Program-made: the position numbers and the translations under genes
The notes under the pieces: generated by a model
Database searches by the model: none
What the model was told of the DNA's origin: nothing
Seen by the model: the letters and a program-made list of their open reading frames with translations, nothing else
Source of the DNA: an uncultured Candidatus Saccharibacteria bacterium
Lineage (GTDB): Bacteria > Patescibacteriota > Saccharimonadia > Saccharimonadales > Saccharimonadaceae
NCBI GenBank assembly: GCA_964483955.1
Contig: CAZADM010000001.1
Span: 20,719-84,718 of the forward strand
Direction of reading: 5' to 3'
Length of the DNA: 64,000 bases
Shown: one piece after another, positions 3,784 to 9,837 of the stretch
Position numbering within the stretch: the first letter of the stretch is position 1
How the letters are laid out: each line of letters opens with the position of its first letter

Positions 3784-4623
3784 GTGAAAATACACACAGT
3801 GATATCAGGTGTACTTGTCGGCATTGGTCTTTTCTTTGTTTTCAGCAGCTCTGTGCATGCAAACGGTGGCGGCGGTAACGTCCAGGGGTACGCCGCCGAT
3901 ACAGACATTGATAATGGCACAATAGTGCAGCTTGTCGAAAAAGATGCGGGCAAAGTAAAAATTGTCTCTCAGAAGAACCTTCAGAATATGTTTGGGGTAA
4001 CTGTTGATCGTAGTGTGTTGCCTATTACTATTTCTTCGGGTGACGAGCAGAACCAAGTGTATGTGGCCGCATCTGGTACATACAACGTTCTTGTGAGTAA
4101 TCAAGCCGGCGATATTAAGTCTGGTGATTATGTAACCCTCTCTGCAATAGATGGTGTTGCAATGAAGGCTGGCACCGAAGAGAAGACGGTATTTGGTCGG
4201 GCAAATGCAGGCTTTAATGACCAAAGCGTTGTACTGGGATCTGTTCCGCTCAAGGACGTAAATGGGCAGGCAAACAAGACGGTCAAGCTGGGTTCTATCC
4301 CGGTGACAATTAATATACAACGCAATCCAAATGAAAAAAGTACAAAAGTGAAGGTGCCCGAACCCTTAGAGCGACTTGGTCAGGCAATTGCCGAAAAAGA
4401 AGTGAGCCCGCTACGTATCTACCTCAGCCTCGGGATTACAGCTATAAGTATTATTGCGGCAATCGTCATACTCTACTCGGGTGTTCGCAACAGCGTCATC
4501 TCTATAGGACGTAATCCAATGTCGAAGAAGTCAATCCTTCGTGCGTTGCTGGAGATTATTTTGACAAGCCTTCTGATTTTAATTATTGGGCTATTTGCGG
4601 TATATTTACTATTGAGGTTATGA
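3784..4623 (+). CDS. Secreted beta-rich protein with a C-terminal two-helix membrane hairpin; first gene of the F1-like ATPase cluster
   Basis: GTG start with an SD, and a signal peptide (..FFVFSSSVHA/NG). The C-terminal hairpin is LSLGITAISIIAAIVILYSGVRNSVISIGRNPMSKKSILRALLEIILTSLLILIIGLFAVYLLL. Confidence 0.7.
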   Translation: MKIHTVISGVLVGIGLFFVFSSSVHANGGGGNVQGYAADTDIDNGTIVQLVEKDAGKVKIVSQKNLQNMFGVTVDRSVLPITISSGDEQNQVYVAASGTYNVLVSNQAGDIKSGDYVTLSAIDGVAMKAGTEEKTVFGRANAGFNDQSVVLGSVPLKDVNGQANKTVKLGSIPVTINIQRNPNEKSTKVKVPEPLERLGQAIAEKEVSPLRIYLSLGITAISIIAAIVILYSGVRNSVISIGRNPMSKKSILRALLEIILTSLLILIIGLFAVYLLLRL

Positions 4624-4654
4624 TTATTTAATCAGAAAAAACGGGTAGGATTGT

Positions 4655-5401
4655 ATGGGATTATTCCGACGAAAAACAAACAAACAGGCAGTGGGTTCAT
4701 CTCCAGAAGAGGTGCAGTACTTTTTTGACGAATATTTTAGCGAAGAGCTGCGCAATAGAGGGCGTTGGTATTTTGAAAATGTCATCAAAGAGAATGCCGA
4801 GCGCTTTAAGGGTGATCTTGATGCGACAATAGATGATATTAATAAGCAACTGAAAGAACAGGTGACGAGTCGTCTAGACCAAGCAATTTCCCAGATTGAC
4901 CATGAGCTCAAAGAGCACGTTACTCAACAACTTGAGAACAAGTTTACAGAGTATACAGAGGCTATGAAATCTGCTCAAGATACGACACTTGAATCACTTC
5001 AAGAGAGTGCTCGATCACTCCAGGGTCAGTATGAGGATTTGCGTTCAACGCTCCGGAAAAACGTTGAAGACCAGAAAGTGACGCTCACTAATGTCTTCGA
5101 GGAGAATAAGGTGCGGATTGCAGCTATGCATGAAGCGCAGAACATGGCACTTGAGTCACTCAGCCATAGTGTTGAGGCACTGCAGAAGCAACATGAAACC
5201 CTAAAGACTACACTCGAGACGCACGTTGCCGCCCAACAGGAAGTGTTTGTTGATGCATTTAAGAATAATATGGCACAGGTTATTGAGCACTACGTCCTTG
5301 AGGCGTTAAGTGGACAGTACGATCTGAAGGACCAACTACCGTCAATTATGCAGCAACTTGAAGATAAAAAGCAGGCAATTGCGGAAGATATGAAACTATG
5401 A
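4655..5401 (+). CDS. Soluble all-helical coiled-coil protein (possible peripheral-stalk analogue; no TM helix)
   Basis: A 248-aa protein with heptad-like, Glu/Lys/Gln-rich sequence throughout. Its stop overlaps the next start (ATGA), so it is translationally coupled to the delta-like gene. Confidence 0.65.
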   Translation: MGLFRRKTNKQAVGSSPEEVQYFFDEYFSEELRNRGRWYFENVIKENAERFKGDLDATIDDINKQLKEQVTSRLDQAISQIDHELKEHVTQQLENKFTEYTEAMKSAQDTTLESLQESARSLQGQYEDLRSTLRKNVEDQKVTLTNVFEENKVRIAAMHEAQNMALESLSHSVEALQKQHETLKTTLETHVAAQQEVFVDAFKNNMAQVIEHYVLEALSGQYDLKDQLPSIMQQLEDKKQAIAEDMKL

Positions 5402-5910
5402 GCACGGCGTCTGTTTCGGTGTATCAAAGTTATGTTCTGCCATCAACAGTGGCAACCGGCCGTGACGTTGCCCGGTTACTTGCTGAATTTGAACGAATTG
5501 ACAACGAGATGACCGCTGCAGCTGTCGTGTCACATGATGAAGCCCGCCCTGAGGTAGAAGTGGCGGATATCGTCCGTGATTTTCTTGATAGAAATGAGTT
5601 TTCGCTCGACAATACAAATGATCGCAGTGAAATGATCACGCAACTCCGACTATTGAAACGCAAAGCCCCTGTTGTTCACATGGCATTTGCCGTAGAAGCA
5701 GATTCAGCCAGTCTTGGGCGTCTTGTCGATTGGTTTCGTGAGTCAATTCACCCGCAGACGCTTCTTGTTGTGGGTTATCAGCCATCGCTTGTGGCCGGAA
5801 CGTATCTTCGAACGCCAAATCACATCTACGACATGAGCTTACGGTCTGCATTTAAAAAAGGTCGTGAAAAACTACTTCATGAACTGGAGGTGCTTAGTGG
5901 CGACAAGTAA
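5398..5910 (+). CDS. atpH: F1 ATPase delta (OSCP)-like subunit, diverged
   Basis: It sits immediately upstream of alpha. The C-terminal pattern AFAVEADSASLGRLVDWFRESIHPQTLLVVGYQPSLVAGTYLRTPNHIYDMSLRSAFKK resembles the delta consensus (..v.l...vDpsLiGG..v.vgd.viD.S.r..L). Confidence 0.6.
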   Translation: MSTASVSVYQSYVLPSTVATGRDVARLLAEFERIDNEMTAAAVVSHDEARPEVEVADIVRDFLDRNEFSLDNTNDRSEMITQLRLLKRKAPVVHMAFAVEADSASLGRLVDWFRESIHPQTLLVVGYQPSLVAGTYLRTPNHIYDMSLRSAFKKGREKLLHELEVLSGDK

Positions 5911-7339: not shown

Positions 7340-7340
7340 T

Positions 7341-8207
7341 ATGCGACGACCTCAAGAAATAAAGGCGGCCGAAGAGTCGATGCGAACTATTGTGAGCCTG
7401 ACAAGTGCTTTCGAGAGTCTTTCTAGTATGCGTATTATGCAGACCAAGAAGAAGGTCCTTATTAGTAATGATTTCTTCAATGAGGTATGGAACATATATA
7501 AGCAGATACGTGTCGATGTGATGTTTAATTTCGGTCGCTCGTATCAAGAACCTTCAAATAACCGCGAGGTGCTTATTTTGATTACAGCACCGAGTGGCTT
7601 GACGGGCGATATCGATCAGCGGCTTGTGAAGAAACTGAAGGGCTACTATGATGAAGAGAAGCATGACATTATTGTGATTGGACGTCACGGTGCACTTCAG
7701 CTTGACCAGGCGAAGATAAAATACGATATTTTCTTTGATATGCCCAAAAAAGATTACATCAATGTCGAGCCGCTTATTGCTGAAATTAAAAAATATGCAA
7801 AGAGTCGCGTGTTCTATCAAGACTACGTATCACTTTCTCAGCAGGATATCATTGATATCGATGTAAGCGAGGCGATATCGACAATGGGCAAGGTGGTTGA
7901 TATAGACCTTGTTAGCGAAGAGCATATTACAGAAAAGAATTATATCTTCGAACCAAATACGTATGCAGTAACCGCGTACCTTGAGACGGCAATCCTGCGG
8001 CTCATGCTCGCCCAGTTTATATACGACAGCCGTCTTGCTCAGCTTGCAAGCCGGTTTAAGGCCATGACAGCCGCAAAAGAGCGTTCTACTGAAGCAATGC
8101 AAGACCTCCATCTTCAGTTTAGTCGAGCAAAGCGGGCACTTGTTGACGTCCGTCTACGGGAGAGTTTAGTTGGGTTGAAGAAGATTCGAGCAGGAGGTGA
8201 TTCATGA
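7341..8207 (+). CDS. atpG: F1 ATPase gamma-like subunit (diverged)
   Basis: It lies between alpha and beta. The N-terminal helix ([28 protein letters not shown]) and C-terminal helix ([44 protein letters not shown]) follow the gamma pattern. Confidence 0.75.
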
Positions 8208-9544
8208 GTGACGAAAATCAATATACAGAACCGCAGGGTGTTGTACGGGTGCTACGAGACATTGTCATTAAGGTTCAGTTTGCTGATGACATGCCTGATT
8301 TGAATGAAATTATCTATGTCGAGAACGAACAAAAAACACCTTTACTTGTTAATTCACTAGAGCATGGCGATACGGCTGTTTGTCTTAATATCGCGGGGGA
8401 CAGGAGCATAAAAAAGGGATCACTTGTTCGACGAAGTGGTAAGAGCCTTGAGATCCCCGTTGGCGACGCCATGATTGGCCGTGTCTGGGACTCTATGGGC
8501 CGGCCTATCGACGGGCTTCCGCAACTTCCTGATGAAGTGCTTGAGAAGATGGAACGACGCCCAATTTTCTCGCCATCTTTCCAGGAAACGTCACTCAAGA
8601 GTCGTCCTGATGAAATCCTTGAAACGGGTATCAAGGTTCTGGACTTCTTTACCCCGTTTGTTAAGGGGCGAAAGATCGGGATTGTCGGAGGAGCTGGTGT
8701 GGGTAAGACAGTCTTGACGATGGAGATGATCAATAACGTCGCCGTCGGGTCTGGAGCACTCAGTATCTTCGCGGGTATTGGTGAGCGAATTCGCGAAGGC
8801 CACGAGCTGTACGACACGCTGAGGCATAATGACCTCTTGAAAACCACGGCAATGTTTTTTGGACAGATGAACGAGAACCCTGTCCAGCGTTCGCTCATTG
8901 GGCTGAGTGCTATTACGCTTGCTGAGCATTTCCGTGATGATCAAAAGAAGGATATCCTACTTTTTGCAGATAATATGTATCGCTATATTCAAGCCCGAAA
9001 TGAGGTTTCGACAATTATAGACCAGACGCCTGCAGAAGGTGGGTATGAACCAACCATCTTTAGTGACGTAAAAGCACTCCAGGACCGACTTTCAAGCAAT
9101 GAAAACGGCTCAATTACTGCACTTCAGACAATCTACGTTCCAGCAGATGATTTGAGTGACCCTGCTGTACAGATGATTCAACACGAGCTTGACAGTATTA
9201 TTGTTCTCAGTCGTGCGGTTGCTGCACAGGGTATCAGGCCGGCGGTTGATATTAACGCATCAAGCTCAAGCCTCCTAACGCCAGATATCGTTGGCGAGCG
9301 TCATTACGAGTTGAGCATTCGTGTCCAGGCTATTTTGCAGAAATACGAATCACTTAAGGGTATTGTGGCAATTATTGGAGAGAGCGAACTTTCCGCCGAA
9401 GACCGCGAAGACTACGGCAAGGCCCAGAAGTTAATAAAATTCTTTTCACAGCAATTCAATGTAATGGAGAAGATGTCAGGTATCCCCGGCGAACATTACA
9501 CCAGAGAGGATACACTTAACGGCATTGAGGAGATCATTAAGTGA
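8204..9544 (+). CDS. atpD: F1 ATPase beta-like subunit
   Basis: [60 protein letters not shown]. The start overlaps the atpG stop (ATGA). Confidence 0.9.
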
Positions 9545-9837
9545 CAGATGCTGTAGATACTAGTGTCTCAACTTCAGGTGCTGTATCTGACAGGCCACGG
9601 ATGGACGTAAAGGTGTACGCACCGTTCCAGATATACTACGAAGGTGTTGGATATAGTGTTAGTGCCGTGAATGCGGTTGGGCCTTTTGATATCCTCCCTA
9701 AGCACCGAAATTTCCTTTGTATGCTGGTCCCCTGCGATGTCATTATTGAAACGCCAGAGGGTACAGAGAAGATACCCATATCAAAGGCACTTATGCACGT
9801 AAAGGCCGACAGGGTTGTGATATTTGTCGATGTTTAA
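9541..9837 (+). CDS. atpC: F1 ATPase epsilon-like subunit, beta-sandwich domain only (no C-terminal helical hairpin)
   Basis: [47 protein letters not shown]...[15 protein letters not shown] fits the epsilon N-domain pattern. The GTG start overlaps the atpD stop; the Met at 9601 is an alternative start. Confidence 0.7.

Follow-up and report, generated by a model that had tools for sequence, protein, structure and literature searches.

A 64-kb window of Saccharibacteria (TM7) DNA, taken from contig CAZADM010000001.1 (positions 20,719 to 84,718, forward strand), carries seven open reading frames (ORFs) on its + strand between positions 3784 and 9837, forming one tightly packed operon that resembles, and departs from, the operon of an F1Fo ATP synthase. 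With confidence that is about evenly balanced, we interpret this operon as encoding a distinct F-type-derived rotary ATPase, one that coexists with F1Fo or in some lineages stands in for it, and in which ATP hydrolysis would torque a non-conducting ring bearing an external crown. A bolder proposal, which we put forward only tentatively, is that this would be the first F-type rotary motor to deliver mechanical output outside the cell, with ATP hydrolysis spinning or torquing a c-ring that conducts no ions and carries a crown of phage-decoration-like domains in contact with envelope or surface partners. The catalytic beta subunit of the window is 93–94% identical to those of loci in Saccharibacteria metagenome-assembled genomes (MAGs) and in a complete TM7i chromosome.

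All seven ORFs listed in a preliminary description made from the same DNA are present. Gene 1 (3784..4623, 279 amino acids (aa)) encodes a c-like fusion protein and is followed, after a 31-nt spacer, by gene 2 (4655..5401, 248 aa), which is labelled a b-like peripheral stalk because of its architecture and position. Gene 3 (5398..5910, 170 aa) encodes a delta/OSCP-like subunit identified through PF00213 matches of its orthologs and a profile comparison with the PDB; its ATG and the gene 2 stop codon overlap as ATGA. Gene 4 (5897..7339, PF00006) encodes the alpha-like non-catalytic subunit, 480 aa long from a revised GTG start. This start most likely lies at GTG 5897 rather than at 5864, because a GGAGGTG Shine-Dalgarno sequence sits 5 nt upstream and the ortholog consensus begins there; with it, the delta and alpha genes overlap by 14 nt. 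A 1-nt spacer leads to gene 5 (7341..8207, 288 aa, PF00231), the gamma-like central shaft, which overlaps gene 6 (8204..9544, 446 aa, PF00006), the beta-like catalytic subunit, through another ATGA. Gene 7 (9541..9837, 98 aa, PF02823), which is epsilon-like, begins at a GTG that overlaps the beta stop codon as GTGA. The six genes from the coiled-coil gene onward had been described as coupled throughout by ATGA/GTGA overlaps; this applies to three of their five junctions (coiled-coil/delta, gamma/beta and beta/epsilon), but not to the 1-nt gap between alpha and gamma.

The product of gene 1 begins with a signal-peptide-like helix (aa 1–26), which is followed by a beta-domain (aa ~33–180), a short helix (aa 193–203) and a C-terminal hairpin (aa 209–278), so that the signal-like N-terminus, beta-rich domain and two C-terminal helices reported earlier for this protein are confirmed. 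A GRNP loop (aa 242–245, nt 4507–4518) lies between the two hydrophobic helices of the hairpin and is invariant, and the last ~70 residues are nearly invariant in Saccharibacteria. Every one of 2056 relatives is named 'hypothetical'. The first genes of distant lineages, found in the contexts of distant beta relatives, align with the window protein at 24–28% identity, and a profile search with the diverse gene 1 alignment recovers 112 proteins from Saccharimonadales, Blackburnbacteria, Daviesbacteria and unclassified Patescibacteria.

On sequence and model comparison, the C-terminal hairpin is homologous to F-type subunit c, because its loop consensus, profile alignment, family matches and structural superposition all point that way. 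Specifically, the loop consensus KGVEAIGRNPLA is close to the canonical IEGIARQPEA, and hhalign aligns the hairpin family with eight c subunits over 70 columns (Prob 86%, P=5e-6), placing RNP in register with RQP; the score of 33.2 compares with 10.0 +/- 2.3, maximum 17.3, for 100 column shuffles. Searched singly, 7 of 52 gene 1 relatives match PF00137, the most frequent family among them (best E 3.3e-5). The AlphaFold2 (AF2) model built on the diverse alignment has a mean predicted local distance difference test (pLDDT) of 84.6, superseding a poor model on a shallow alignment (63.7), and its hairpin superposes in Foldseek on the Chloroflexus c subunit with a TM-score of 0.88, a root-mean-square deviation of 1.2 Å and 22% identity. 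The Foldseek matches of the hairpin are mostly c subunits, followed only by ExbB at lower TM-score. This homology surfaced only once distant relatives joined the alignment: the window protein alone matches no Pfam family, and hhalign with the close Saccharibacteria hairpins only gives P=0.02 and Prob 2% against c subunits. The preliminary description had stated that no c-subunit-like ORF exists in the 64 kb; the two-helix hairpin of the 279-aa protein, a diverged c subunit by hhalign, PF00137 and Foldseek, corrects that statement.

Comparison of 104 relatives shows that this c-like protein lacks a carboxylate at the ion-binding position. The residue 20 positions past the loop arginine (R+20), which aligns with the essential Asp/Glu of subunit c, is V, I, F, L, A, M, G or T in all 104, hydrophobic in nearly all and acidic in none. 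Five to six positions before R+20, helix 2 carries a polar-type position occupied by E, Q or G in Saccharibacteria and by N elsewhere. The N-terminus of subunit c faces away from F1, and because of this the ~150-aa beta-domain of gene 1 would be extracytoplasmic, outside the membrane. Foldseek relates this domain to phage capsid decoration or cement proteins in the PDB (5e-5) and to viral DUF2190 and preneck-appendage barrels in BFVD (1.8e-8), with TM-scores of up to 0.74 relative to the target. In addition, PF09956 and PF23982 are matched weakly by 6–7 of 52 gene 1 relatives (best E 0.0012–0.004).

The gene 2 product is a long coiled coil, and its C-terminal motif, NMA..EHY..ALG.Q.DLK.QLP, is conserved. 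Its homologues measure 235–265 aa and occupy, in all loci, the position between the c-like gene and delta. Twelve of 66 Saccharibacteria orthologs, and the proteins of all six lineages examined outside Saccharibacteria, have an N-terminal transmembrane helix; the window protein has no hydrophobic segment, in keeping with its earlier description as a soluble coiled-coil protein without a membrane anchor. Sequence homology to subunit b is marginal: the family profile reaches subunit b 9o19_X in the PDB at E=0.0098, ranked after apolipoproteins, and gene 2 has no match to PF00430.

No ORF resembling subunit a was found in the window, where none of the multi-transmembrane ORFs matches PF00119, and this absence had been noted correctly in the preliminary description. 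Nor is a subunit a called within 8–10 kb of the cluster in seven other lineages (loci L081, L083 and L086–L090). Two control loci reached by the same search route show what ordinary operons look like: L085 is an N-type operon with I, a, c and b, and L091 is a canonical b-b'-delta-alpha-gamma-beta-epsilon operon with a two-domain epsilon. A 238-aa ORF with five transmembrane helices (34343-35059, - strand) was considered as a subunit a and rejected, as it matches no Pfam family and has no RLxxN-type motif; small ORFs with two transmembrane helices at 38906, 49218 and 61503 sit inside longer ORFs.

The head, judged from its sequences, is of the alpha3beta3 type with its catalytic residues intact, and is completed by gamma, a one-domain epsilon and delta. 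The beta subunit matches PF00006 at E=3.4e-64 and, aligned to TA2.A1 beta, retains the Walker A motif GGAGVGKT (aa 162–169), GERIREG (aa 193–199), DNMYR and the SELSAED loop. The alpha subunit matches PF00006 at E=2.9e-64 and is ~40–45% similar to PDB alphas (306 bits); its P-loop reads GDGKVGKT, its arginine finger SVTRVG is retained, and the segment N-terminal to its beta-barrel is short. In known enzymes the alpha N-terminus normally binds delta. The alpha and beta motifs, of which GGAGVGKT, GERIREG and GDGKVGKT had been picked out before, are at least 95% conserved across 71–81 orthologs. One departure concerns the adenine-stacking tyrosine of canonical beta (GIYPAVDP), which we take to be bovine Tyr345 or E. 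coli Tyr331: the window beta has Arg instead (GIRPAVD, aa 345), and other lineages have L, F or M. The GER(I)REG motif and the loss of this Tyr are common to seven lineages.

The smaller subunits are assigned with varying ease. Gamma scores 86.9 bits on PF00231 against a cut-off of 39.9, and epsilon scores 37.3 bits on PF02823 against 27, aa 21–97 covering the whole profile. In the 98-aa epsilon the beta-sandwich is the sole domain and the C-terminal helices are missing, as previously remarked; the extent of the PF02823 match leaves no room for PF00401. Epsilon is 80–108 aa long in all other cluster lineages, versus 134–150 aa in the canonical and N-type control loci. The delta protein of the window alone is a weak match to PF00213 (E=0.02) and matches NF004402 at E=0.0012 over nearly its full length, yet 40 of 44 orthologs match PF00213 (best E 1.8e-8), and the top PDB match of the family profile is Bacillus PS3 delta (9.5e-6), followed by mitochondrial OSCPs. 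The earlier view that gamma, delta and epsilon are only pattern-level matches therefore describes the single delta protein but neither gamma nor epsilon, which, like alpha and beta on PF00006, exceed their gathering thresholds. All five F1-type subunits nevertheless fall under the NCBIfam equivalog cut-offs for the canonical enzyme: atpA 376 vs 554, beta TIGR01039 425 vs 463, gamma TIGR01146 64 vs 194, delta 16 vs 57.5 and epsilon 29 vs 67.

The cluster is well beyond chance, because the same seven-gene order recurs in all related loci with enough flank. Family-specific beta patterns match at least 434 species-representative genomes, of which the best 80, all Saccharibacteria-type, were analysed. 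Across these 80 loci, identity to the window is 78–94% for beta, 69–92% for alpha, 60–92% for gamma (79 loci), 53–82% for gene 1, 54–71% for epsilon, 35–75% for delta and 25–80% for gene 2, and the order is retained wherever the flank suffices. The co-occurrence of the 279-aa and 248-aa genes with atp genes in relatives, which the preliminary description had proposed to check, holds in all of these loci with enough flank. The same order is also found in seven deeply diverged lineages with 41–42% beta identity, including Daviesbacteria and a 'Patescibacteria group' MAG, and the cluster occurs in Microgenomates-type members of the candidate phyla radiation (CPR); relatives of gene 1 extend to Blackburnbacteria. 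In a neighbour-joining tree of 74 beta sequences, which is coarse, with few named references and no mycoplasma sequences, all context-verified cluster betas fall into one 21-member clade (100/100 bootstraps) that excludes the canonical and N-type references. The phylogenetic placement suggested earlier, run here for beta, accordingly sets the cluster apart from both.

Published genomes bear on how the cluster relates to ordinary F1Fo. Southlakia epibionticum has one canonical atpI-a-c-b-delta-alpha-gamma-beta-epsilon operon and two PF00006 proteins genome-wide (PMC10633639); because there are only these two, it is without the seven-gene cluster. BlastKOALA counts of KEGG orthology (KO) terms give TM7x and RAAC3, which have a canonical operon but not the cluster, one each of a/b/c and of alpha/beta/gamma and one epsilon, and give the complete Saccharimonadales genomes S. 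aalborgensis, GWC2_44_17 and M. amalyticus one each of a/b/c, two each of alpha/beta/gamma and one epsilon (PMC12592800, Table S5). In the 15 genomes of order CAILAD01, a/b/c are not counted at all, and alpha occurs in 5, beta in 4, gamma in 5 and epsilon in 3 genomes (PMC12592800, Table S5). The extra alpha/beta/gamma copies are left without comment in that paper (PMC12592800). We infer that this second set is the seven-gene cluster because the KO signature fits, with extra alpha, beta and gamma and no extra a, b, c, delta or epsilon. M. amalyticus probably carries the cluster; TM7i, a cultivable member of the Saccharibacteria, carries it, as do Saccharimonas MAGs (L080, P0399 and P0484). The cluster thus behaves independently of F1Fo, as a module of its own, and is not the sole ATP synthase in Saccharimonadales having both. 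The alternative offered earlier, an organism's only ATP synthase with an altered membrane sector, is unsupported for Saccharimonadales with an additional canonical operon; the gene content of CAILAD01, where a/b/c were not found, may fit it.

Two irregular cases deserve separate mention. MAG SRP342105_co3_222 holds two whole clusters, L020 (CAYVSX010000020.1) and L045 (CAYVSX010000005.1), whose betas are 81% and 79% identical to that of the window; either a mixed bin or a true duplication would produce this. In a Daviesbacteria MAG (L087:10589-11886), beta is called as two ORFs of 195 and 254 aa, reflecting either a frameshift (pseudogene) or an assembly error.

In the mechanism we propose, the c-like hairpins would form a ring with their GRNP loops facing gamma and epsilon in the cytoplasm, while the N-terminal domains of gene 1 would form a crown outside the membrane. 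The complex would run only as an ATPase, with no ion translocation and no ATP synthesis, because it has neither an ion site nor a subunit a. The C-terminal helical domain of epsilon is inhibitory and brakes hydrolysis, and its loss fits a hydrolysis-only direction. Hydrolysis would then turn or torque gamma-epsilon and the ring against an alpha3beta3-delta-b stator, and the mechanical output would reach the crown and its envelope contacts, so that the motor could energise a surface process from cytoplasmic ATP in organisms without a respiratory chain. Candidate partners of the crown are the giant helix-turn-helix (HTH)-anchored envelope proteins of other CPR lineages or the surface-protein array of Saccharibacteria, both described below.

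Several points weigh against this reading. The weakest is the stator: there is no subunit a, the alpha N-terminus is short, and in the subclade of the window (54 of 66 Saccharibacteria loci) gene 2 starts MGLF... and has no transmembrane helix. We know of no membrane stator for a c-ring other than one built with subunit a. Assembly, rotation, ATPase activity and expression are predicted from genes and models, and both the external location of the beta-domain and ring formation derive from homology and a predicted signal peptide. The c-subunit homology itself, at P~5e-6, has support that falls short of overwhelming; the reference c subunits given to hhalign were entered by hand, a HMMER profile of the close Saccharibacteria hairpins only finds nothing in the PDB or Pfam, and helical hairpins are not unique to c subunits, VirB2 pilins matching the c-subunit fold structurally. 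With R, L, F or M in place of the beta Tyr, nucleotide handling may differ. Finally, the co-occurrence of the cluster with a canonical operon rests on the published KO table and on the identity of the second set that we read into it.

Among the other explanations, a static anchor with cytoplasmic work ranks first, followed by residual ion transport, a translocase and gene decay. In the first of these, the ring would serve as a static anchor in membrane and wall; the c-like protein would tether the F1-like head beneath the membrane, where ATP would be spent on a cytoplasmic or membrane-proximal task, much as in the internal F1-like chains of the Mycoplasma mobile gliding machinery, and the ectodomain would simply hold the complex to the envelope. 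The F1-like ATPase of M. mobile indeed works without an Fo ion path (PMC11864180). If the membrane did not have to resist any torque, most Saccharibacteria could do without the helix that their b-like stalk has lost, and phage decoration-like domains are typically static binding modules. However, few parts are better conserved than gamma, epsilon and the GRNP coupling loop, a sign that passing torque on to the ring is important; strong conservation (53–82% within Saccharibacteria) extends to the ectodomain, and no cytoplasmic client genes are conserved beside the cluster. We regard a static anchor as unlikely, though it is the strongest of the competitors.

A second possibility, slightly less probable again, is that the complex is still an ion-translocating F-type ATPase or synthase whose ring uses the polar residue of helix 2 together with a canonical a or an unrecognised channel protein. 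That residue is conserved and lies one to two turns from the canonical site, a canonical subunit a is probably also present in many cluster genomes, and the cluster keeps delta and a b-like stalk, whose task in known enzymes is to hold alpha3beta3 against a membrane stator. Set against this, the essential-carboxylate position is the one found acidic in 0 of 104 relatives, and the polar residue is Asn in most lineages, with E, Q and G interchangeable in Saccharibacteria, unlike a proton carrier. No subunit a accompanies the cluster in the window or within 8–10 kb of seven others, and a ~150-aa domain on each ring subunit has no ion-transport role. Moreover, a/b/c KOs occur in 0 of 15 CAILAD01 genomes although alpha occurs in five (PMC12592800, Table S5).

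The relationship of the head to export ATPases raises a third explanation, a translocase in which the head would power export or insertion of a substrate, with neighbouring surface proteins or the giant envelope proteins as candidates, through or beside the ring in a manner like that of FliI/FliJ in type III export systems. Both alpha and beta also match FliI/SctN families (E~1e-50 to 1e-63), the window cluster is surrounded by genes for secreted and surface proteins, and the cluster adjoins giant membrane proteins in six other lineages. Yet F-type models score far higher (376–425 bits vs 167–214 bits), the head is a heteromeric alpha/beta assembly with gamma, delta and epsilon rather than a FliI-type homohexamer, and export-gate homologues are absent. 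To our knowledge, c-rings do not conduct polypeptides. A translocase therefore appears improbable. Hardly credible at all is a decaying duplicate of the atp operon without a function of its own, which would account for the sequence divergence, the failed equivalog cut-offs and the beta split into two ORFs in one Daviesbacteria MAG, but not for seven intact ORFs in the window and in dozens of species, for an architecture conserved across CPR classes, or for 78–94% beta identity with catalytic motifs at least 95% conserved among the best 80 species-level genomes of organisms with ~1-Mb genomes.

The surroundings of the cluster differ between lineages. In six non-Saccharibacteria lineages, a very large protein (~800 to >5000 aa) directly flanks it (L081:1-5526(-), L086:16541-19738, L087:12393-15276, L088:8014-9345, L089:1-2394(-) and L090:9819-15371). 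Each starts with a MerR/HTH_17-like domain; a membrane segment comes next, and then a huge C-terminal region. Among the six, five are mutually homologous (E down to 1e-28), and that of L088 shares only the architecture of HTH plus membrane segment. They have no counterpart in the 64-kb window, and are possible motor partners or clients.

In the window, a 670-aa secreted protein with Gly/Thr-rich repeats (1574-3586, - strand) is encoded divergently from gene 1; it matches PF25692, a phage depolymerase C-terminal beta-sandwich, weakly (E=0.004), and its gene is syntenic in most Saccharibacteria loci. The 197 nt between the two genes (3587..3783, + strand) are the presumed promoter region of the operon. 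Direct reading finds there an extended -10-like sequence, TGTGCTATAAT, at ~3738-3748; a scan of this intergenic region for consensus promoters and terminators gives promoter-like sites no more often than in shuffles. At the other end, a gene for a 370-aa protein (9834-10946, - strand) converges on epsilon, the two stop codons overlapping, and is syntenic in 75 of 80 Saccharibacteria loci. Its product has an acidic disordered N-terminus, a single transmembrane helix and, outside, a beta-helical domain resembling bactofilins (PF04519, E=2.9e-4).

Beyond it lies an array of seven secreted proteins (11052-19026, + strand). Those starting at 11052, 11935, 13628 and 16827 have in common the C-terminal motif TPAG.Y....L.....F/Y, which recalls WxL-type surface proteins, and those at 14763, 15831 and 17986 have a signal peptide, a C-terminal transmembrane helix and a basic tail. 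An LPXTG motif is found in none of the seven, and only the 15831 gene has Pfam matches (PKD and Ig-like domains). The distant locus L084 also has a homologue of the 17986 gene, placed downstream of beta-epsilon. Farther along the window, three tRNA-Met(CAT) genes occur within 6.4 kb (31229, 31915 and 37494, all on the - strand; region 31229-37570), and a type IV pilus / T2SS-F platform gene (50668-51897, - strand, within 49552-53688) has large ORFs beside it that are probably its ATPases.

Few molecular machines are better understood than rotary ATPases, and only a few repurposed forms are known to us, namely N-type and mycoplasma types 2 and 3. The cluster would add one with an unprecedented membrane sector, in which c lacks its ion site and is fused to an external domain, subunit a is missing, and the delta/b stalk is kept. 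The family is widespread, with thousands of sequences in at least two CPR classes whose ~1-Mb genomes rarely keep unused genes. Databases label its parts 'F0F1 ATP synthase subunit gamma', likewise for beta, or 'hypothetical' (including P0399-P0518), and because public annotation calls the cluster gamma and beta ordinary 'F0F1 ATP synthase', KO tables show an unexplained second alpha/beta/gamma set. Such labels inflate calls of ATP-synthase presence in CPR metabolic reconstructions, as with the alpha/beta/gamma of CAILAD01 without a/b/c. If the proposal of an external output were true, respiration-less CPR bacteria poor in proton-motive force would have in it an ATP-driven counterpart of Ton/Mot-type energisers, serving attachment, remodelling of the envelope or host interaction. 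The cluster offers a route to asking how epibiotic CPR bacteria energise their surface, since cultivable Saccharibacteria appear to carry it, and it may illuminate the mechanism of the mycoplasma F1-like X0 ATPase. The literature on Saccharibacteria, Patescibacteria and CPR, as far as our incomplete coverage extends, yielded no description of the seven-gene cluster.

Among known systems, phage proteins resemble only one part of the cluster. The external domain of gene 1 shares its beta fold with phage head decoration or cement proteins (DUF2190, PF09956, lambda gpD- or TW1 gp-type) and preneck-appendage barrels, but in the cluster it is joined to a membrane hairpin and encoded within a cellular operon, has no phage context, and is similar in sequence only marginally. 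The N-ATPase (atpDCQRBEFAG) resembles the cluster in being a second F-type operon per genome with diverged alpha and beta, the beta of the N-type locus L085 being 43% identical to that of the window. It differs in possessing a, c and b with an ion site, in lacking delta, and in its order, beta-epsilon-Q-R-a-c-b-alpha-gamma; the cluster proteins stay under the N-ATPase cut-offs (TIGR03305 and TIGR03324 among them; 305 vs 750 and 387 vs 752), and L085 lies outside the cluster beta clade (100/100 bootstraps).

The type 2 gliding machinery of M. mobile (MMOB1660/1670; G1-ATPase, PDB 9io5) is likewise an F1-derived alpha/beta/gamma motor for mechanical work, uncoupled from Fo, and its F1-like ATPase works without an Fo ion path (PMC11864180). 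It forms a dimeric cytoplasmic chain with PGK and, unlike the CPR cluster, has no c-like ring, delta or b. The cluster proteins do not reach its cut-offs (MMOB1660, 317 vs 600; MMOB1670, 349 vs 850), and the PDB G1 beta 9io5_A, at 292 bits, ranks under canonical betas at ~340–370 bits.

The mycoplasma type 3 F1-like X0 ATPase is the system closest in logic. MIB-MIP antibody cleavage, which takes place at the cell surface, depends on it (PMC12994834), and its family includes a 12-transmembrane 'Protein 1' and a cytosolic 'Protein 2' (PMC12994834, PMC3369863). Like the CPR operon, it is a seven-gene cluster (MSC_0618-0624 / MMCAP2_0575-0581) that stands beside a housekeeping F1Fo, encodes subunits like alpha, beta, gamma and epsilon without any annotated a or c gene, and is thought to be an ATPase serving a cell-surface process. 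It also has a partner with a signal peptide, a large N-terminal region and two C-terminal transmembrane helices, which is like gene 1 by described topology only; an NCBIfam scan of gene 1 gives no relevant match. Its order is different (12-transmembrane protein, 19-kDa protein, gamma, epsilon, 87-kDa protein, alpha, beta), and it has the 12-transmembrane protein and no delta or b-like stalk, whereas the CPR cluster has a delta/OSCP homologue. No ORF with 12 transmembrane helices was found in or beside the window cluster, and the MSC_0619 and MSC_0618 models give alpha 249 against a cut-off of 520 and beta 387 against 570, lower than on the canonical models. MIB-MIP genes were not seen; the neighbours were scanned without protease- or Ig-binding-like Pfam matches, no MIB or MIP query being run. 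The cluster belongs to neither the type 2 nor the type 3 family of mycoplasmas, because their HMM (hidden Markov model) cut-offs are not reached, the 12-transmembrane protein is missing and delta is present. The comparability to mycoplasma systems proposed in the preliminary description thus extends to the logic of type 3 and stops short of family membership.

By descent, the cluster is closest, on sequence grounds, to canonical F1Fo (atpIBEFHAGDC), because it has the same c-to-epsilon order and its highest HMM scores there. The two share the order c, b, delta, alpha, gamma, beta, epsilon; homologous alpha, beta, gamma, delta, epsilon (N-terminal domain only) and c hairpin; and the P-loops, catalytic Glu/Arg, arginine finger and R(N/Q)P coupling loop. 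The cluster differs in lacking subunit a and atpI; its c has a signal peptide, a ~150-aa external domain and no ion-binding carboxylate; its epsilon has no C-terminal helices, its beta has lost the adenine-stacking Tyr, and in most Saccharibacteria its b-like protein has no membrane helix. Every cluster subunit is under its equivalog cut-off, and the cluster coexists with a true F1Fo in some genomes. The earlier idea of an 'F1-like, X0' machine in CPR is borne out in so far as the cluster is separate from the housekeeping synthase, as shown by the equivalog scores, its own beta clade and the KO counts, but its partners are not the non-Fo genes then envisaged. Since gene 1 ends in a c homologue and gene 2 is b-like with a membrane anchor in most lineages, the membrane sector is therefore a remodelled Fo rather than an unrelated X0, one in which c and b are kept, subunit a and the carboxylate are lost, and an ectodomain is gained.

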